This document shows positions 1 through 11,273 of a DNA stretch of 11,273 nt, in pieces (within the stretch, counting starts at the first letter, position 1; every line of letters begins with the position of its first letter). The translations under genes and the position numbers were made by a program. The DNA comes from a virus. The DNA lies in the IMG/VR virus record IMGVR_UViG_3300045988_083849, positions 1 through 11,273 of that record; one strand, written 5' to 3'. Under the pieces are notes generated by a model. The model saw only the letters and a program-made list of their open reading frames with translations. It had not been told where the DNA came from and did no database searches.

Positions 1-14
1 ATGCACAACTCCCC

Positions 15-46
15 CATTTTTAACATTTCCCAACACATTTTTAACA
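15..46 (+). repeat. Two phased direct repeats CATTTTTAACA inside the left ITR (15-25 and 36-46)
   Basis: Identical 11-mers whose starts are 21 nt apart, about two helical turns. Mirrored in the right ITR. Confidence 0.85.
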
Positions 47-59
47 GTCGCCAACATAG

Positions 60-80
60 TTTGGCACGCTTTTTGCATAG
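60..80 (+). promoter_or_regulatory. Sigma-54-type -24/-12 box (TTTGGCACGCTtTTTGCATAG), left ITR copy, pointing inward (rightward)
   Basis: Core at 62-77 is TGGCACG-cttt-TTGCA, an exact match to TGGCACG-N4-TTGCW. GG (63-64) and GC (75-76) are 12 nt apart. Confidence 0.55.
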
Positions 81-103
81 GCCGCGCCAAACCTCCACGA
101 AGA

Positions 104-143
104 AACAAAAAAAATAGCGTACCAAAATAGTTTGGCACGCTAT
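104..143 (-). terminator. Intrinsic terminator after the last (tail) gene
   Basis: On the minus strand, 12 nt after the TAG stop (156-158): AUAGCGUGCC (143-134), a 10-nt loop, then GGUACGCUAU (123-114). This is a 10-bp stem with one G:U pair, followed by U7 (plus-strand A-run 107-113). Confidence 0.75.
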
Positions 144-151
144 TTGCATAG
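131..151 (+). promoter_or_regulatory. Second sigma-54-type box (TTTGGCACGCTaTTTGCATAG), left subterminal, outside the perfect ITR
   Basis: Core at 133-148 is TGGCACG-ctat-TTGCA. It is the same 21-mer as the ITR copy except for one spacer base. It overlaps the 5-prime arm of the minus-strand terminator hairpin (134-143). Confidence 0.5.
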
Positions 152-155
152 GCCT

Positions 156-1979
156 CTAATCTATAAATACACCGCTTTGCAATAAATTAACAATTTCGGT
201 GTACTCGCTTTTCGGCACGTTGTCTATATCATTATTTACAATCTCATCAAATTTGTAAAAACCTTTTGCACATTGCGAAAGTACAACCTTTTTGTAGTCA
301 TTGCCGCGTCCACCGCTGTACTCATTTGTAAAGTAATTCAGCCGCACAAACGGCTCAAGTCCATACAAATTTTGTGCGTCCCACCTGTCACTACCTATTA
401 CGCTTGTGTCGTAAGTCGTGTAAAGTACATCCGTATTAGGTTGTACGTTATGCAATTGTATAGGTAAATCGTTATTATCCAATAATTTACAAACCCCGTC
501 ACCGCTAATTACATTTATATCGTACACCAATTTTACAGATTTACCGACATAATCAGAAGACAAACTAACAATACCCACGAACGGCAAAAATACCTCGATT
601 ATCATATTTTTGTCAAGTGTGGTATTATCTTTGCGCGGTATTGTGATACTACCGAAGTCAAGCGTTATTATATCCTTTTCGGGTAACTCTGCGTTTATTT
701 CTGTGTCGTAGTTGCCGCATTTTATTCGGTCCGTGCCTTTAGTAGGTATGTTCGTATAAATACGCTTAATGCGGTTAATATATTCGCTCAAATCTTGCTC
801 GTAAGTTATAAAAGTGCCGCTTTCTGTGAAGTACCGTTTTTTACTAAAAGCGTCAAGGTTATCCAACGTAACTACATACACATTTATAGACCCATAGTTT
901 TTAATGGTCGGTGTTACCTCAACTTGCGCCCCTCCACGAAATTCGATGTACTCAGTTTTGGGGCATTCGGTTGCGATGTCAAGTGTAACACTACCTTGCT
1001 TTTTATCCTCGCTAATAGTGAAACGTTTGTATTGTACACCTCCAAAATCGTCCGTGTATCTTATTTCGGGGGGGTCGGTCTCGCTTGTAAACTTGCTACC
1101 CTCATTTGCTTGTATTGTAACGTTTACTTTGTCGGTCGGGGTGTAATATGTGGGTATATTTTCGGCATTACAATTATATAGGGTATTTTTAACGGGTATG
1201 GCCTTAATATAAGTACCATTAATAACCACGGACACAGAAGTATCTACATTTGTTATTGCTATGGTTGCGGTGTCGCTGCTTTGTATGGTCATATCCTCGG
1301 TATGTGAGACACCGCTTGTATCTGTGTAGGTAACGTTGGCCGCTCGTATAACATAGTCGCTGTTTGTACCTTTTAGTGTTATGTTGAAAGTGCCATTATC
1401 GTAGATATATGTAGCGTTTGTGCCGTCTATGTTATTTGTTATTGTAATCGTTGGCGTACTCTCGGCAACCTCCCCGTTAAGTGTAAAAGCACTATTTTTT
1501 GCAGCGTCATCTATGGTAAAAGTAGCCTTGCTTTTGTCAGTGCTTACTACCCCGTTAGCGGTCGAAGTACCGCCAAAGCTATCAGTGTACACACAAGTAG
1601 GCGCAACATTGAATTGATACCCCGTATCAGCGGTAACTACAATGGTATGTACGCCACCGCTCGCTCTATACGTATAGGTAGTGTTTACTATATTGTTTGT
1701 TATCGTTGGTTCTGCGGGGGCGTCGGGGTCTACCTTAGTTGCACCCGTTAAACGTATATTTGTACCGCTAACACCGCTAAAGTTACACGTTTTTAGGTCT
1801 GTAGATACTTTGCCCTTAATACTGCCCCCTCCAAAATCATCATCAAAACGGGCGCGAGGTGTAGTTGCGGTATCAAACAAAAAACCCGTGTCAGCGGTGC
1901 TTATGATATTATACGCACCCACACTCTCAGTATATGTAAATGTAGTGTGCGGTATTTGGTTTGTTATTATATCTGCCAT
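156..1979 (-). CDS. Distal tail / receptor-binding protein. N-terminal four tandem ~85-aa Ig-like repeats, C-terminal ~250 aa resembling the C-terminal part of the phi29 gp9 tail knob
   Basis: 607-aa ORF and the last gene of the structural block. Internal repeats each begin with (TP)TI(T/K)N and each carry a YTDxFGG-like motif (aa ~45, ~130, ~217, ~307). The C-terminal end GFYKFDEIVNNDIDNVPKSEYTEIVNLLQSGVFI resembles, from memory, the gp9 C-terminus ([34 protein letters not shown]). Confidence 0.6.
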   Translation of the reverse strand: MADIITNQIPHTTFTYTESVGAYNIISTADTGFLFDTATTPRARFDDDFGGGSIKGKVSTDLKTCNFSGVSGTNIRLTGATKVDPDAPAEPTITNNIVNTTYTYRASGGVHTIVVTADTGYQFNVAPTCVYTDSFGGTSTANGVVSTDKSKATFTIDDAAKNSAFTLNGEVAESTPTITITNNIDGTNATYIYDNGTFNITLKGTNSDYVIRAANVTYTDTSGVSHTEDMTIQSSDTATIAITNVDTSVSVVINGTYIKAIPVKNTLYNCNAENIPTYYTPTDKVNVTIQANEGSKFTSETDPPEIRYTDDFGGVQYKRFTISEDKKQGSVTLDIATECPKTEYIEFRGGAQVEVTPTIKNYGSINVYVVTLDNLDAFSKKRYFTESGTFITYEQDLSEYINRIKRIYTNIPTKGTDRIKCGNYDTEINAELPEKDIITLDFGSITIPRKDNTTLDKNMIIEVFLPFVGIVSLSSDYVGKSVKLVYDINVISGDGVCKLLDNNDLPIQLHNVQPNTDVLYTTYDTSVIGSDRWDAQNLYGLEPFVRLNYFTNEYSGGRGNDYKKVVLSQCAKGFYKFDEIVNNDIDNVPKSEYTEIVNLLQSGVFID

Positions 1980-3652: not shown

Positions 3653-4222
3653 TCAATAAATTAATTTAGTTATATCATTTATAATTGCAAAAATAATGCT
3701 TTTGCGCCAATTTTGCAAATTAAATTCAATTTCTTTTTTTAACTCGTCCGTTACTGATTTATTACCCAATCCTACAACCTTTTGTGTACTCGTCACGTTA
3801 TTAGTACGTGTATTGTCGTATGTGGTACTATCTTTGTCATACTCCACAAAATCAGTTGCGTTGTATGGTTTGTTAGACGCTACATTTGTATTGTTATTGT
3901 TGGCGTTTTCCGTGATATTGTCTTCGCGCGTTGTCTGCTGCTGTACTGGGTTAAGTACATCATATTGCGCATTGTAGGCACTCGCCACGCGTACCCAATT
4001 GTTAACACTCAACGCAATGATATTTTTTATATACTCGTTTGCGTTTGCTTGTGTTATGGTGTTTACGACCTCGCGCTCGCTGTAGTTGAGTAGTACCAAC
4101 GTATCAAGTCCCACGCTATCCATTTCGCCAAATATTGCATTGTATTCCGTGGGGAAATTATCCTTGAACACCTCCGTAAATAGGCCGTGTTTAGGGTCGG
4201 GGTATAGGTCAATTATTTTCAT
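3653..4222 (-). CDS. Structural protein of unknown role (candidate lower collar/adaptor or scaffold)
   Basis: 189 aa counted from the first ATG (4220-4222). This start overlaps the portal stop by 14 nt, and the stop lies 1 nt before the MCP ATG. It has helical-looking N- and C-terminal parts flanking an N/T/Q-rich central segment. The longer track ORF (to 4378) starts at GTG inside the portal repeat and is not favoured. Confidence 0.6.
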   Translation of the reverse strand: MKIIDLYPDPKHGLFTEVFKDNFPTEYNAIFGEMDSVGLDTLVLLNYSEREVVNTITQANANEYIKNIIALSVNNWVRVASAYNAQYDVLNPVQQQTTREDNITENANNNNTNVASNKPYNATDFVEYDKDSTTYDNTRTNNVTSTQKVVGLGNKSVTDELKKEIEFNLQNWRKSIIFAIINDITKLIY

Positions 4223-5186
4223 TTTCTTCTTCCTTTTCTTCGTCCGTTTCGGTTTCGGTTTCCGTTTCGTTGTCCGTTTCGGTGTCCGTTTCGGTGTCCG
4301 TTTCGGTGTCCGTTTCGGTTTCTGTTTCGGTTTTATTTTCTTCTTTGCGAATGGCCCAACTGCTTGCAAGTTCAACACTTATGTTTGTGCCAAACATAGC
4401 GTTTATCTTTTCTACTGCCTTTTTGCGCTCTTGTAGCATATTATCAACGTAGGGGTTTAGGGCGTCCACATTCATTTGCACTTCGGACGTGTTCAACCGC
4501 TCGCGCTTTAGGTTGTAGTTGGCATTCAACCCAATTTCGTTAAAGGCCGACGCCTTGAAGTATTGTAATAACTCAATGAGTTGCGTTATTTGGTTGGCGC
4601 TCTGCGTGGATATACTTTGCAAGTTGACGCCCTTAAAAAATGCGTTTTCACCAATTACGGAAAAATCGCCCTGCAAAATCTTTGTTATGAAATCGTCAGC
4701 GCTTTGTTTGGTCTTGTCATCGCTCGCACTTATTAACATAGTAATGCGAGAGAGTACCGAACATGTATTTAAAGACAAAAGCGTGTCACTACACAACACA
4801 CCATATTTGCCAAAGATTGGCAAAAGGCTATTTGCTCCACTATCGTTTTTAATTAGTACGCCCTCAACGCCTATTTTGTACGACTTGTTTAGTTGCAAAT
4901 ATGGGTTACTTACAATGTATTCTGTCGCCTCATTGTACGCGTTGGGAGTACCTCCAAAGCCGCCAGTAAAAGCGTACATTTTGCCGTCTACCTCAGTTAC
5001 AAAAACATTTCCGTTTGTCTGCAAAAGGTTTTCGAGATTGCTTTGTGGTAATGTTTCGGGCAAACCTTTATACACAAACATTGCCTGCGTTATAGCCAAC
5101 ATTTTTTTAATGTAGCCATTTACGCTTTTATCTTTGTTTTTTATTTGCTCTTGATACTTTATGTATAAGTTATCCTTCTTTGCCAT
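4209..5186 (-). CDS. Portal / head-tail connector (phi29 gp10-like) with a long acidic C-terminal tail
   Basis: 325 aa. MLAITQAMFVYKGLPETLPQSNLENLL, EIGLNANYNLKRERLNTSEVQ and RKKAVEKINAMFGTNISVEL parallel, from memory, phi29 gp10 blocks ([67 protein letters not shown]). Confidence 0.9.
   Translation of the reverse strand: MAKKDNLYIKYQEQIKNKDKSVNGYIKKMLAITQAMFVYKGLPETLPQSNLENLLQTNGNVFVTEVDGKMYAFTGGFGGTPNAYNEATEYIVSNPYLQLNKSYKIGVEGVLIKNDSGANSLLPIFGKYGVLCSDTLLSLNTCSVLSRITMLISASDDKTKQSADDFITKILQGDFSVIGENAFFKGVNLQSISTQSANQITQLIELLQYFKASAFNEIGLNANYNLKRERLNTSEVQMNVDALNPYVDNMLQERKKAVEKINAMFGTNISVELASSWAIRKEENKTETETETDTETDTETDTETDNETETETETDEEKEEENENN
4242..4333. repeat. Coding tandem repeat (hexamer-periodic; unit GTCCGTTTCGGT, four perfect tandem copies at 4272-4319 plus one at 4242-4253)
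   Basis: Read directly. In the portal frame (minus strand) it encodes TETETETDTETDTETDTETDNETETETETD. Confidence 0.95.
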
Positions 5187-5376
5187 TTGTCAAAGTTTTT
5201 ATAAGGGTGCTTAACTCACTTAGTACTTTGGTGTTATCCTCCAAAGTTGTACGTAAATTGTCGGTCTCCTCTTTGTGCTGCTCGTCGTGCTTTGTCATGT
5301 AGTAAAATACTATGAGACACATCGCGATAGGAAAACCAACGTTTGAAATCATTTGTGTAACTTGTGTAATATCCAT
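5170..5376 (-). CDS. Small single-pass membrane protein, YvrJ-like (SNVGFPI motif); candidate holin or lysis factor
   Basis: 68 aa. It has an N-terminal hydrophobic helix (ISNVGFPIAMCLIVFYYM) and then a charged helical tail. The ATG lies 20 nt downstream of a TAnnTTTG box. The stop overlaps the portal start by 17 nt. Confidence 0.6.
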   Translation of the reverse strand: MDITQVTQMISNVGFPIAMCLIVFYYMTKHDEQHKEETDNLRTTLEDNTKVLSELSTLIKTLTNGKEG

Positions 5377-6541: not shown

Positions 6542-6566
6542 TGTTTTAATTTTTAATTGTTTGAAT

Positions 6567-6582
6567 TGTTCCACGTGGAACA
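6567..6582. promoter_or_regulatory. Perfect 16-bp palindrome TGTTCCACGTGGAACA (candidate operator) between the polymerase and ATPase genes
   Basis: Read directly. It lies between the polymerase stop (6586-6588) and the ATPase ATG (6541). It is related to the two sites at 10225-10265. Confidence 0.6.
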
Positions 6583-6585
6583 TTT

Positions 6586-8772
6586 TTAATCTTTTAGTTT
6601 TATACCCTTTAGGTAATTAAGGTACATTACACTCAAAGATAGGTTGTAACTTGTTGGCTCTAAATGTACACCCGTGTTTTCGGCAAATGTACACTTTTTA
6701 CCTTGATAGTCGGTAACTTCACCCGTTATTTTGTAGTCTATGTACGTATGTATGTTTTTGCCCGTTGCTTCGCACGGAAACTCAAGATAATTCGTAAATG
6801 CGTTAAATATGTTGTCACCATACTTTTTACATAGGTATGGTATTGCAGCCTTTTTGTTTACACCGCTAATTGTCAAACTATATTCATAACTTTTGCCTCC
6901 TACGTTTAGCGCGTTTTCTTCTTGTATCATATAGCGCTTTGCTCCCAACGTCTTAAAACGTTTATATGTACCTTCGTAGTCCCAAACGCCTAATGTTTTA
7001 GTAACTCCCTTAATGGTTTCGGGTTCGCATTTGGCAAAGTCGATGTTATGATGTTTACACGCGGCATTTAATTTGTTATACACTACATTGTTATACATAT
7101 CAAAATACCTTTTGTGTGCTGCTGCGTTACGGAGTTTAATGCTGTCAGTATCGCTATAAATGTAATCTTGCTTTGCTTCGTAGATTGCAGTAAATAAATT
7201 GCGCCTTGCGTAGGCAGTCACAAAAACACCCCACGGGTAAAACAAAAAGCGGTTTTTGCTTTCGTTGTACTTTTGTAGCATTTCGGATTTTTCGCTGTCT
7301 GTAAATGTGTTTTCGTCCCATTGTCCATTGTACACAAATTCATCGCGCAAAGGGTTAGTAACACACATACCATAGCAAGAATTTAACATCTCTTTGCTAT
7401 TTAGATACTCCACTTCATTACCTCGCACGCCTTTTAATTTGGTTTTGTTTTCGTACAAATCCAAGATTGTACGTACAAATTCAGTTGGTAAATAGTCGGC
7501 CTTATAGCAATACATTGCACCGATACGGACACCGCCCCACGTGTAAAAGTTGCGTATTATGTTGTAGTCTATGTTAGTTATTGTAGTGGCTATCTTTGCA
7601 GCACAAACTAAACGTCCATTGTTTTCAACGTGGTTAACCTTGACAAAGCATTTGCTTACACTTATAGGGTTGTCCTGCAACTCTTTTGCAAAAATGTTTG
7701 TAAATTCCACGTCAAAGATACAAAGGTACTTACTTGTGTAGTATTTAAATTCTTTAATATCTCGAGGCTGTACCCTTACACCTTTCGACATCGGGAATTT
7801 TTCCGACACCATAACATAAGGGTAACTACTTGTAAAATCGTAACTTGCTACATCTTCACAAATTTCGTCTATATGGTTAGCGTTACCATGAGTATAGCCG
7901 CCACTAAACGCCCTTTGTAACATATTAAATTCATCCAATCCGTTGATAGTTAGTGAATGGATTAAATTTATACACTGCCAATTACGCGAGGTTTTGCCGT
8001 TTACCTTTTTACTTAACATCGCTTTGCGGCAATGTTTACGGACGTACCCCGTTTTTGTTAGGGGCAATCTTGTTATTAACTTGTTTTGCTCTAATTGCTC
8101 TTGTATGTAATTCATCACGATTTTTATATCATTTACGCAATAAAGCAACTCTTTCGGTGTTAACTCTGTTTGTGTATGTCGTATTTTGGTATAGTCCAAA
8201 TCTCCAACCATTTTTGCACACTTGTACGTTTGTAGTTGCTCGCCTAACTTTGCAAGGTTGTAGCCACTTAGTAAGTAACTACAACGGAACTCAATGCCTA
8301 TTGTTGTAGTTGCGTATAAGGGTTTGCGTAGGTCAATGCTGAAAACCTTTTCCCATTCAAATAAAGTACGAAGAAATTGAAATTCATAAGATAGATTGTG
8401 TATGTACACAATTAGTTTTTTTTTAGTGGATAACTCCAACGTTTTTGCTATCGTGTTACACATAGTTGTAAACTCGTCCCATGTTCTGCCTACTATTACG
8501 TACCCATTTATACCAAACTGCCACACGTACATAATAGCACATTTTTCCATTTTTACGCCTAATTTGGTGTACTGCTCGTATGTGTATGTGTTGCCGTCTT
8601 CGTATCTATAAAAGCTACTTACTTCAATATCAAAGGCACAAGGGACGTTGTAAAATTTACACCCCTTATTGTTGCCTATTACGTTTTTGTCATTTACGGC
8701 CAACTGCAAAATATCTTTTATGTCGGTTGCCTTATATATACCGCTGTGCTGTTCATATTGCACTTTTTTCAT
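6586..8772 (-). CDS. Protein-primed family-B DNA polymerase
   Basis: 728 aa. Exo I is CAFDIEVSS, Exo II is HNLSYEFQF and Exo III is YCVNDIKIV. Motif A is YDFTSSYPYVM, motif B is KEMLNSCYGM, motif C is YIYSDTDSIK and the KxY motif is GAKRYM. The genome has ITRs and the upstream gene overlaps by ATGA. Confidence 0.96.
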   Translation of the reverse strand: MKKVQYEQHSGIYKATDIKDILQLAVNDKNVIGNNKGCKFYNVPCAFDIEVSSFYRYEDGNTYTYEQYTKLGVKMEKCAIMYVWQFGINGYVIVGRTWDEFTTMCNTIAKTLELSTKKKLIVYIHNLSYEFQFLRTLFEWEKVFSIDLRKPLYATTTIGIEFRCSYLLSGYNLAKLGEQLQTYKCAKMVGDLDYTKIRHTQTELTPKELLYCVNDIKIVMNYIQEQLEQNKLITRLPLTKTGYVRKHCRKAMLSKKVNGKTSRNWQCINLIHSLTINGLDEFNMLQRAFSGGYTHGNANHIDEICEDVASYDFTSSYPYVMVSEKFPMSKGVRVQPRDIKEFKYYTSKYLCIFDVEFTNIFAKELQDNPISVSKCFVKVNHVENNGRLVCAAKIATTITNIDYNIIRNFYTWGGVRIGAMYCYKADYLPTEFVRTILDLYENKTKLKGVRGNEVEYLNSKEMLNSCYGMCVTNPLRDEFVYNGQWDENTFTDSEKSEMLQKYNESKNRFLFYPWGVFVTAYARRNLFTAIYEAKQDYIYSDTDSIKLRNAAAHKRYFDMYNNVVYNKLNAACKHHNIDFAKCEPETIKGVTKTLGVWDYEGTYKRFKTLGAKRYMIQEENALNVGGKSYEYSLTISGVNKKAAIPYLCKKYGDNIFNAFTNYLEFPCEATGKNIHTYIDYKITGEVTDYQGKKCTFAENTGVHLEPTSYNLSLSVMYLNYLKGIKLKD

Positions 8773-9407
8773 AATCCGAAGTTATTAAATTCTTCTAATA
8801 TGCTATTTATTTCACTTTCTACTTCGTTCGTTAGTTTGTTGGCTTCGCTCTCGATATTGCTATCTATGGCGTTTTGTAGGCTTACCGCTTCACTCTCAAT
8901 TTGTTCGCTCGCGTCCCTTGCGCTTTGCTCCAAATCTCCAGTAAAATCTTTATACTTCATTAGGTACTTTTCCACAAAATCGCTATCGCTTAAACTTGTT
9001 ATCTTTTCGTTTAATTTGTCTGCCATTAAATTAAATTCTTTATCTGTAAGGCCGTAGGCGGTTTTTAGATGTTCGTTGTACGCTCTTGTGCCTTGAGCTG
9101 TACTCGTAGGCTGACGCAAAAAAGATACTGCCTTTGCGTACTCTATTTTTATCTCGTCCCAACTTTGGTCTCTAACAGAAAATTTGCTAAAGACTTTAAT
9201 ATCTCCTTTGTTTAAGGCAGTTACCGCGGGGCTTAATAAACCTTTGTCTTCAATGTTTTGTATTCTTCGGTTGGCCTGTTGAAATACGCGTCTTACTTCC
9301 TTTCTTAATTCGGGGCTACTTTCAACGCTTTGTATAATATCTTGTCGTAACTCGGCGCGTTGCGTTGCCGTAAATACGCTTTGTTTGTATCCTATCTTGT
9401 TAGGCAT
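8769..9407 (-). CDS. Candidate terminal protein (replication primer)
   Basis: 212 aa. It sits immediately upstream of the polymerase and is translationally coupled to it (ATGA overlap), as gene 3 and gene 2 are arranged in phi29. The N-terminus is basic and the C-terminal third is acidic, Ser-rich and helical. There is a weak remembered resemblance around SFLRQPTSTAQGTRAYNEHLKTAYG (phi29 TP SFTNRANMRYQFEKNAYG). Confidence 0.5.
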   Translation of the reverse strand: MPNKIGYKQSVFTATQRAELRQDIIQSVESSPELRKEVRRVFQQANRRIQNIEDKGLLSPAVTALNKGDIKVFSKFSVRDQSWDEIKIEYAKAVSFLRQPTSTAQGTRAYNEHLKTAYGLTDKEFNLMADKLNEKITSLSDSDFVEKYLMKYKDFTGDLEQSARDASEQIESEAVSLQNAIDSNIESEANKLTNEVESEINSILEEFNNFGL

Positions 9408-9452
9408 AACTATAAAATTAAAATAGGTAGGTAGTTATATGCTACCTACCTA
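9408..9452 (-). terminator. Intrinsic terminator or attenuator between the early ORFs and the replication genes
   Basis: Minus strand: UAGGUAGGUAG (9452-9442), loop CAUAUAA, CUACCUACCUA (9434-9424). This is a perfect 11-bp stem followed by UUUUUAAUUUUAUAGUU, which runs straight into the ATG at 9407. Confidence 0.65.
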
Positions 9453-10224: not shown

Positions 10225-10265
10225 TGTTCCACGTTAAACAATTTGTATTTTGTTTCACGTGAAAC
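10225..10265. promoter_or_regulatory. Pair of CACGT-centred operator-like sites: TGTTCCACGTTAAACA (10225-10240) and the perfect palindrome GTTTCACGTGAAAC (10252-10265)
   Basis: Read directly. The site centres are 26 nt apart, and the sites lie 18-58 nt upstream of the ATG at 10207. They fit the same consensus (TGTTYCACGTGRAACA) as the 6567-6582 palindrome. Confidence 0.55.
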
Positions 10266-10894: not shown

Positions 10895-11023
10895 TTATTG
10901 TGGTGTATTTGTTATTCCATATTTCTTCAACGGCCTTAACTCTTTAGTTGTGAGATAAAGACCAACGAAACCGCGCCAATCGTTAAATTCACCTATGTTT
11001 TTTATTTTCTGAATGATTTCCAT
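10895..11023 (-). CDS. Possible first early ORF, not in the track (42 aa: MEIIQKIKNIGEFNDWRGFVGLYLTTKELRPLKKYGITNTPQ)
   Basis: Translated by hand. Its ATG lies 19 nt downstream of a TAnnTTTG box and it fills the only sizeable non-terminal gap. Being short, it is weakly supported. Confidence 0.35.
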   Translation of the reverse strand: MEIIQKIKNIGEFNDWRGFVGLYLTTKELRPLKKYGITNTPQ

Positions 11024-11042: not shown

Positions 11043-11074
11043 CAAAGGTAGTTACTTCGTGTACTATATGCAAA
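11043..11074 (-). promoter_or_regulatory. Bacteroidota-type promoter: -33 TTTG (11074-11071) and -7 TACCTTTG (11050-11043)
   Basis: The minus strand reads TTTG, then 20 nt, then TACCTTTGCAA, with the ATG (11023) 19 nt after the -7 box. The architecture matches the 5397-5404 box. Confidence 0.5.
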
Positions 11075-11120
11075 TTTTTAGTCTTAATAAATCTTAAAAT
11101 GGTATTTTTTTGTTTTGTGT

Positions 11121-11141
11121 CTATGCAAAGAGCGTGCCAAA
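11121..11141 (-). promoter_or_regulatory. Second sigma-54-type box, right subterminal, outside the perfect ITR, pointing leftward
   Basis: The minus strand reads TTTGGCACGCTcTTTGCATAG. TGGCACG is the complement of 11133-11139 and TTGCA the complement of 11124-11128. Predicted start is near 11113. Confidence 0.55.
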
Positions 11142-11193
11142 TTGTTTTGCGGTGAAGTGTTTTTTTTTATTGGATTTGGAGGTTTGGCGCGGC

Positions 11194-11214
11194 CTATGCA
11201 AAAAGCGTGCCAAA
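11194..11214 (-). promoter_or_regulatory. Sigma-54-type -24/-12 box, right ITR copy, pointing leftward in the direction of all genes
   Basis: The minus strand reads TTTGGCACGCTtTTTGCATAG. TGGCACG is the complement of 11206-11212 and TTGCA the complement of 11197-11201. Predicted start is near 11186. Confidence 0.55.
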
Positions 11215-11227
11215 CTATGTTGGCGAC

Positions 11228-11259
11228 TGTTAAAAATGTGTTGGGAAATGTTAAAAATG
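11228..11259 (-). repeat. Mirror copies of the CATTTTTAACA direct repeats in the right ITR (11228-11238 and 11249-11259)
   Basis: The plus strand reads TGTTAAAAATG twice, 21 nt apart. These are part of the perfect ITR. Confidence 0.85.
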
Positions 11260-11273
11260 GGGGAGTTGTGCAT

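Follow-up and report, generated by a model that had tools for sequence, protein, structure and literature searches.

What use could a phage make of promoters that need an activator, if no such activator is apparent in its own genome? Transcription from sigma-54 promoters does not begin before an ATPase activator has remodelled the bound polymerase, and a lytic phage which carries the promoter half only must either read a signal of its host or use the locked complex in another way. The question arises from a viral DNA of 11,273 nt, which was analysed over its whole length (called the window in the following) and for which two exact sigma-54 boxes had been predicted at the right terminus.

The phage genome, its relatives and the probable host

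The window represents an almost entire linear phage genome, in which every gene is read from the minus strand. The phage is phi29-like and related to Astrithrvirus: a protein-primed family-B polymerase, a gp16-type packaging ATPase and a phi29-type connector and capsid protein are encoded, and the genome is bounded by inverted terminal repeats (ITRs). The polymerase gene (6586-8772, minus strand), which sets the genome type, was recognised with Pfam, PHROGs and a protein search. The ORF at 8769-9407 (minus strand) is probably the terminal protein, because it is situated directly upstream of the polymerase gene and resembles ORF002 of Salmonella phage Astrid, which occupies the equivalent position (32% identity over 91 aa, E = 9e-12). 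At the gene-proximal right end, the first ORF (42 aa; 10895-11023, minus strand, ATG at 11023) lies downstream of the boxes; at the left end, the boxes point in antisense direction into the last gene (607 aa; 156-1979, minus strand), which probably encodes a tail protein. A search for near-identity between the window and GenBank phages gave no match, and the protein search yielded only cousins with identities of up to 44%. The nearest cultured relatives belong to Astrithrvirus (from Salmonella, Pectobacterium, Acinetobacter and other hosts), with 42–44% polymerase identity.

At least 273 contigs in IMG/VR matched the polymerase of this lineage. From the polymerase search 88 relatives were examined, which fall into four clades with 65–95% polymerase identity: clade A, consisting of the window and 10 contigs (91–95%), clade A' (4 contigs, about 80%), clade B (69 contigs examined, about 67%) and clade C (5 contigs, about 65%). 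Most of the 88 originate from one IMG/VR dataset.

The ITRs of the window (1-97 and, as mirror image, 11177-11273) are perfect over 97 nt, and the inverted repeat is 94% complementary over 114 nt. The window is short of 4 nt (AAAT) at each end, since the sequencing adaptors of relatives join directly to AAATATGCAC; with the absent terminal bases the perfect repeat amounts to 101 nt. The Illumina adaptor (...CTCTTCCGATCT) was found fused straight to AAATATGCAC in clades A and A' and to AAAGGTAC in clades B and C (junction contigs L128, L132, L196 and L208, the true end AAATATGCAC being read from L128 and L132). These genomes begin with 5'-AAA, as does the terminus of phi29 (AAAGTA). In three contigs (L133, L139 and L160) the ITRs seem to measure 366 to more than 600 nt and to extend through the sigma-A promoter into the first gene; such long ITRs may be assembly artefacts or real.

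No Shine-Dalgarno motif precedes any of the 15 genes of the window. A sequence of the form TTTG-N20-TAccTTTG at 11043-11074 (minus strand) is located between the inner right box and the first ATG; it is kept in relatives, and a sequence of the same form also stands before the first genes of clades B and C. TTTG-N20-TAnnTTTG (-33/-7) is the promoter form of Bacteroides and Flavobacterium. From the absence of Shine-Dalgarno sites together with the presence of this promoter, the host is most probably a member of the Bacteroidota. The position of the boxes upstream of a housekeeping-type -33/-7 promoter and of the first ORF, which had been part of the original prediction, was borne out. A scan for sigma-70 promoters showed no enrichment in the window (38 matches, with 30 expected), as should be the case with a host from the Bacteroidota. 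An assignment of the host from MAG bin labels was rejected; the labels were contradictory (Melainabacteria/Gastranaerophilales, Prevotella, Scatosoma, Staphylococcaceae). The related MAGs are labelled human-gut or faecal, and thus the question should be approachable with the genetics of Bacteroides or Prevotella.

A host of this kind would possess sigma-54. One rpoN gene each was reported in 27 of 27 genera of Bacteroidia surveyed, with about nine enhancer-binding proteins per genome on average (supplement of PMC12316311), and chaperone genes of Bacteroides thetaiotaomicron are reported to depend on sigma-54 (PMC12316311). Published promoter sequences of Bacteroides groES and grpE were sought to see which regulon of the host the phage might mimic; only the statement of sigma-54 dependence was found, and the supplementary file named "PSSM" in the same publication holds protein motifs of activators. 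Relatives with polymerase identities of 55% or less (L214, L216, L217 and L219) showed no boxes and instead sigma-70-type promoters and Shine-Dalgarno sites; the boxes therefore appear to follow the clades with Bacteroidota-like signals.

The terminal boxes and their conservation

Direct reading and a pattern search gave four exact matches to TGGCACG-N4-TTGCA in the window, at 62-77 and 133-148 on the plus strand and at 11124-11139 and 11197-11212 on the minus strand. The expectation by chance was 0.01 according to 200 dinucleotide shuffles, none of which contained four matches. Thus the two boxes at the right terminus exist as had been predicted, and the estimate that far fewer than one match should occur by chance was sound. 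Written as 21-mers, the outer right box TTTGGCACGCTTTTTGCATAG (11194-11214, minus strand; 22.2 bits in the matrix described below) is inside the ITR and has a predicted start at about 11186, and the inner right box TTTGGCACGCTCTTTGCATAG (11121-11141, minus strand; 22.1 bits) has a predicted start at about 11113. The outer left box (60-80, plus strand), also inside the ITR, is directed inward and antisense to all genes, with a predicted start at about 88; from the inner left box (131-151, plus strand) transcription would start at about 159, antisense to the 3' end of the last gene. Since the perfect ITR comprises 97 nt, the inner copies are beyond it, as had been noted for the right end. All genes are on the minus strand and therefore only the right-end boxes are co-oriented with them; the claim of co-orientation with the whole gene set holds for this pair, but not for the left-end copies. 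Among the four 21-mers the sole variable base is the third base of the spacer (T/A/C/T), in agreement with the prediction that variation is confined to the non-consensus part. The inner copies, beyond the perfect ITR, retain an identity of 20/21 with diverged flanks.

For scoring, a position weight matrix was built from 52 validated sigma-54 promoters (supplement of PMC12316311). The four boxes reached 22.0–22.2 bits, well above the median of the training set (17.3; maximum 23.0) and above the best of 200 shuffles (18.4). All 12 consensus positions were matched in each of the four boxes, compared to one of 24 E. coli promoters. The -24 GG and -12 GC elements (TGGCAC-N5-TTGC) are present in all four copies, and their spacing is invariant in relatives. 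The box also has a T-tract before the GC. Such a tract is linked to strong closed complexes and to binding by sigma-54 alone, as in the S. meliloti nifH promoter. Binding of sigma-54 without core RNA polymerase has been described (PMC2715252). The canonical promoters of S. meliloti nifH and E. coli rtcB and pspA resemble the boxes in the sequence TGGCACG-N4-TTGCW, the GG-GC distance of 12 nt and the T-tract. In contrast to these, the boxes are situated in the ITRs of a linear protein-primed phage, where each end has one to four of them in tandem; a matching activator gene or enhancer is not apparent, and half of the boxes point away from any gene. A reading of the box as a -33/-7 promoter of the Bacteroidota type was ruled out by the spacing and by the TA of TAnnTTTG, which does not fit. 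Neither a packaging RNA nor any other RNA family was detected when the window was scanned in full with Rfam; the boxes thus do not belong to any known structured RNA.

Neither an AAA+ activator (whose absence had been stated in the prediction) nor a sigma-54 DNA-binding domain was found among the ORFs of the window with Pfam and PHROGs, and no upstream enhancer site for the boxes was recognised in the window. The same databases indicated no DNA-binding domain in any ORF of the window; six small early ORFs are uncharacterised. Between the terminus and the outer left box there are two 21-nt direct repeats, CATTTTTAACAnnnnCCAACA (15-56, plus strand; mirror copy at 11218-11259); their TTTAAC and CCCAAC parts do not vary between any of the clades. 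These repeats are candidates for elements of the origin, for binding elements of the terminal protein or polymerase, or for activator-binding elements. Their TTTAAC/CCAAC motifs are situated 107–143 nt upstream of the predicted inner start site and may be regarded as an enhancer candidate only; upstream of the predicted outer start site there are only about 90 bp.

The assembled termini of all clades carry boxes, and among the 88 relatives strong boxes occur within the terminal 400 nt only. All boxes of clade B (222 of 222), clade A' (20 of 20) and clade C (4 of 4) are directed inward. In clade A 37 inward boxes and 16 weak outward sites, which overlap the outer box, were counted; every strong box is inward. 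The weak outward site of the window (TGGCGCGGCCTATGCA, 74-89, minus strand; 12.7 bits) shares the central TGCA with the outer box, and its mirror copy (11185-11200, plus strand) overlaps the outer right box; it is specific for clade A, where it arises from an inverted CGTGCCAAA on the 3' side of the outer box. The number of boxes per end ranges from one (clade C) to four (clade B), and in clades A, A', B and C alike the first of them starts at nt 66, counted from the true end; it thus lies at a fixed distance from the terminus and within the ITR, as would be expected of an auxiliary origin site for a host factor.

In an alignment of 38 unique termini from the four clades, the longest invariant block was TGGCAC-g-n-T-t-TTTG-c. 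Around this block, the three bases before and the five bases after differ between clades, and paralogous copies in a single genome have only the sigma-54 core in common. Conservation in related contigs, which had been proposed as a check of the prediction, was found for the core. Variants in relatives (TGGCAT, TTGCT, TTGCC and TTGT) all occur among validated promoters, TTGT for example in E. coli pspA and pspG.

Possible functions of the boxes

The motif and its conservation suggest that the four boxes are in good probability genuine sites for the sigma-54 holoenzyme of the host. They represent a conserved terminal-repeat module of a large gut phage family of the phi29-like, Astrithrvirus-related type, which probably uses a host factor needing an activator that the phage does not encode. 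The identity of the motif, as put forward in the original prediction, thus appears well supported, and the two functions proposed there, host-gated early transcription and a closed complex at the origin, are both possible.

The best single mechanism would appear to be that of activator-gated inward promoters upstream of a constitutive early promoter, although this is preferred tentatively, at slightly less than an even chance. The sigma-54 holoenzyme would sit on each box as a stable closed complex, and the boxes would fire inward only if an enhancer-binding ATPase of the host is active, with starts at about 11186 and 11113 (minus strand) and about 88 and 159 (plus strand). At the gene-proximal end, a condition-dependent transcript into the early operon would then be added to the output of the constitutive -33/-7 promoter. 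The gene-distal boxes could persist because the ITR is copied between the ends, because both ends carry inward early genes in related clades, and because, in the clade of the window, the inner distal box was recruited as one arm of the last-gene terminator. This latter element (112-145, minus strand) is an intrinsic terminator with a 15-bp stem (AAAUAGCGUGCCAAA / UUUGGUACGCUAUUU) followed by U8 and a predicted fold of -23.8 kcal/mol (z = -5.7); the -24 half of the left inner box forms one arm of its hairpin.

Activator-gated promoters are supported, as far as sequences can tell, by the 12/12 matches, scores in the top range, the invariant core, the T-tract before the GC, variants which are known from real promoters, the restriction of strong boxes to the terminal 400 nt and the strict inward orientation. 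By analogy, support is also provided by the inward ITR promoters of the cousins, the rpoN-bearing Bacteroidia and the one precedent reported for a lytic phage, YuA. The Astrithrvirus phages compared (Pectobacterium phage DU_PP_III, Acinetobacter phage Phanie and Salmonella phage Astrid) share with the window the gene order, a size of about 11.5 kb and the polymerase identity given above. Their ITRs (83–219 nt) carry or adjoin inward promoters, similar to the position of the boxes; these are, however, of the sigma-70 type, with early genes at both ends; as in the distant relatives above, Shine-Dalgarno sites are present and sigma-54 boxes are lacking. Since DU_PP_III has a sigma-70 promoter (TTGACG-17-TAGAAT) inside the ITR, promoters embedded in ITRs may be considered a habit of the family. 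In clades B and C inward early genes are present at both ends, as in Astrithrvirus; in the clade of the window nothing is encoded inward from the left end. Strong host-polymerase promoters in tandem, directed inward from a genome end, are also known as A1-A3 of phage T7, but these depend on sigma-70, need no activator and are found at one end only. Pseudomonas phage YuA is a 58-kb siphovirus. A sigma-54-dependent promoter was reported for this lytic phage (Ceyssens et al. 2008, cited in bioRxiv 10.1101/2023.10.13.562163), which would rely on host sigma-54 for part of its transcription, as is proposed here; it is a single internal promoter without ITR arrays, in another type of phage and another host phylum.

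Several observations argue against activator-gated promoters. The early genes already have a sigma-A promoter, the phage has no activator gene, an enhancer site could not be recognised, and the distal boxes in the clade of the window would yield antisense RNA only. The gene-proximal inner box is changed at critical bases in five of nine clade A relatives (TTGTA twice, TCGCA, GGCAAG and GGCCCG), whereas the gene-distal, antisense inner box is intact in eight of nine. In clade B the innermost copy is almost always TTGTT, and an indel of 1 nt is tolerated. The inverted -24 half CGTGCCAAA in clade A would also fit a protein that binds independently of orientation. A role at the origin or in the titration of sigma-54 is therefore still viable, since the distal copies are antisense and one of them is half of a terminator.

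The second explanation, less probable than the first but a serious rival to it, assumes that sigma-54 or its holoenzyme does bind, and that the stable closed complex itself is useful, rather than any RNA. The ITR boxes would be docking sites which load host sigma-54 or the locked holoenzyme onto both termini, where it could assist or mark the protein-primed origin, act as a roadblock shielding the terminus from read-through transcription, or serve as a sink for the small sigma-54 pool of the host as genome copies multiply. Such a role would agree with the presence of boxes at both ends, whether or not genes lie downstream, with the lack of an encoded activator and with the T-tract class of the motif, which is tied to very stable closed complexes. 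Only the outermost box is present throughout the family; it lies beside the invariant TTTAAC/CCCAAC repeats, and its fixed position at nt 66 in all clades hints at a link with the origin. A parallel exists in adenovirus, another protein-primed linear genome, whose ITRs contain sites for the host transcription factors NFI and Oct-1 some tens of bp away from the core origin; their role in replication is demonstrated, whereas for the phage it is a possibility only, in which a sigma factor or holoenzyme would take the place of NFI and Oct-1. A binding platform or sponge, however, would not need the strict inward orientation, the cousins have true promoters at the equivalent location, and a holoenzyme 60 bp from the end might equally hinder strand displacement. 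To our knowledge, there is no precedent for sigma-54 in replication, which also counts against this role; if replication or titration should prove true, this would be a new use of sigma-54 and also a bacterial parallel to the host-factor-assisted origins of adenovirus.

Box arrays in other viruses also bear on this point. A scan of IMG/VR with the exact pattern gave 343 boxes in 953 kb among the 120 stretches listed, where chance would account for about one beyond the required 120. Three or more boxes within 500 bp were present in 38 of these 120 stretches, only one of which is a relative of the window phage; examples are L041:8251-8447, L053:2642-2838, L006:17-256, L010:12297-12706 and L035:4-92. 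In an uncultivated podovirus-like group (L041), nine boxes in alternating orientation are packed into about 200 bp between divergent replication and packaging modules; a search for cultured relatives of array-bearing phages of this type found none. Other contigs contain periodic arrays with 27 or 35 nt at their ends, and some unrelated phage contigs pack eight to nine boxes at a spacing of 27–47 nt or as face-to-face pairs 5 nt apart. This density exceeds the need of a promoter and the simultaneous binding of holoenzymes, and a non-promoter reading is thus kept alive. The arrays suggest an overlooked layer of phage-host regulation; if the terminal boxes were indeed docking sites, they would exemplify a more general and as yet undescribed habit among phages, that of possessing dense consensus sigma-54 arrays.

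It is unlikely that the boxes are iteron-like sites for a phage protein (terminal protein, polymerase or an early DNA-binding protein) or for another host protein, with a coincidental likeness to sigma-54 sites. Iterons are also short direct repeats clustered at an origin, and the boxes are arrayed in ITRs adjoining it; in clade B each is preceded by TTTAACA at a fixed distance of 15 nt, the -12 C is dispensable in inner copies, inverted copies of TTTGGCACG are present in clade A, and the six small early ORFs without known function might supply a binding protein. In clades A and A', however, the inner boxes lack the TTTAACA association. Iterons bind an initiator encoded by the replicon, and none was identified here; the phage encodes no sigma-54 DNA-binding domain, and the repeat matches the consensus of a host sigma factor. 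Agreement with an independent consensus at 12/12 positions would arise with a probability of about 6e-8 per register; in four clades the conserved block has the same limits as the sigma-54 core, and the tolerated variants are the same as in real sigma-54 promoters.

Much less probable still is the view that a nucleic-acid structure is what counts, i.e., arms of terminators or hairpins in RNA or displaced single-stranded DNA, and that the likeness to promoters is irrelevant. The terminator stem at the left inner box and the inverted repeats around the outer box (GCCAAC-N4-TTTGGC and TTTGGCACG-N14-CGTGCCAAA) would fit; yet only one of the four copies is part of a terminator, the -12 half is conserved though it lies outside every stem, and the inverted partners are specific for clade A, whereas the box is family-wide. 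That the boxes are hitch-hikers without function, which were duplicated as the ITRs expanded and stay uniform through copying from end to end, as the variation of ITR length and box number between clades might suggest, is hardly credible in view of a core which is invariant down to 65% polymerase identity while adjacent bases have turned over, and of the near-identical inner copies amid diverged flanks.

Further elements in the genomes

Two box-like sequences were noticed in the interior of clade B genomes. Matrix hits of 14–17 bits (TGGCAAGGAACTTGCA) are inside the coding sequence of the terminal protein and were set aside as coding-constrained. An exact 12/12 box, TTTGGCACGAAATTTGCAC, occurs antisense in a coding region of about 20 of the 69 clade B genomes, at approximately 5100-5340 on the minus strand (e.g., L140:5184, L163:5334 and L213:5100); it may be a chance sequence kept by coding constraint, or an antisense promoter.

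A direct repeat TTAAGA-N4-TTAAGA at 11079-11094 (minus strand) immediately precedes the -33 element of the early promoter, and both clade A and clade A' retain the block CTTTTAAGATNTNTTAANAC; a regulator site or an UP-like element is possible. The palindrome GTTYCACGTGRAAC, which fits TGT-N10-ACA, is present in two copies at 10225-10264 and once more at 6564-6582. These sites are intergenic, upstream of an ORF for a small membrane protein and at the junction of the polymerase and ATPase genes, respectively. In clades B and C, the ITR contains two to three copies in the interval that separates the sigma-54 boxes from the sigma-A promoter. The palindrome is probably an operator for a phage regulator.

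Besides the terminator of the last gene, two strong terminator-like hairpins with T-runs are present on the minus strand, one at 9424-9452, which separates the small early ORFs from the terminal-protein gene, and one at 2437-2461, after the capsid gene; they suggest three transcription units. Finally, a 12-nt periodic repeat (GTTTCGGTGTCC-like) extends from 4204 to 4347 in the overlap of ORFs of 241 and 325 aa and encodes, on the coding strand, an acidic repeat rich in T, D and E, which corresponds to the C-terminus of the connector or the N-terminus of a scaffold; the contigs of several relatives (L158, L209 and L210) break at this repeat.
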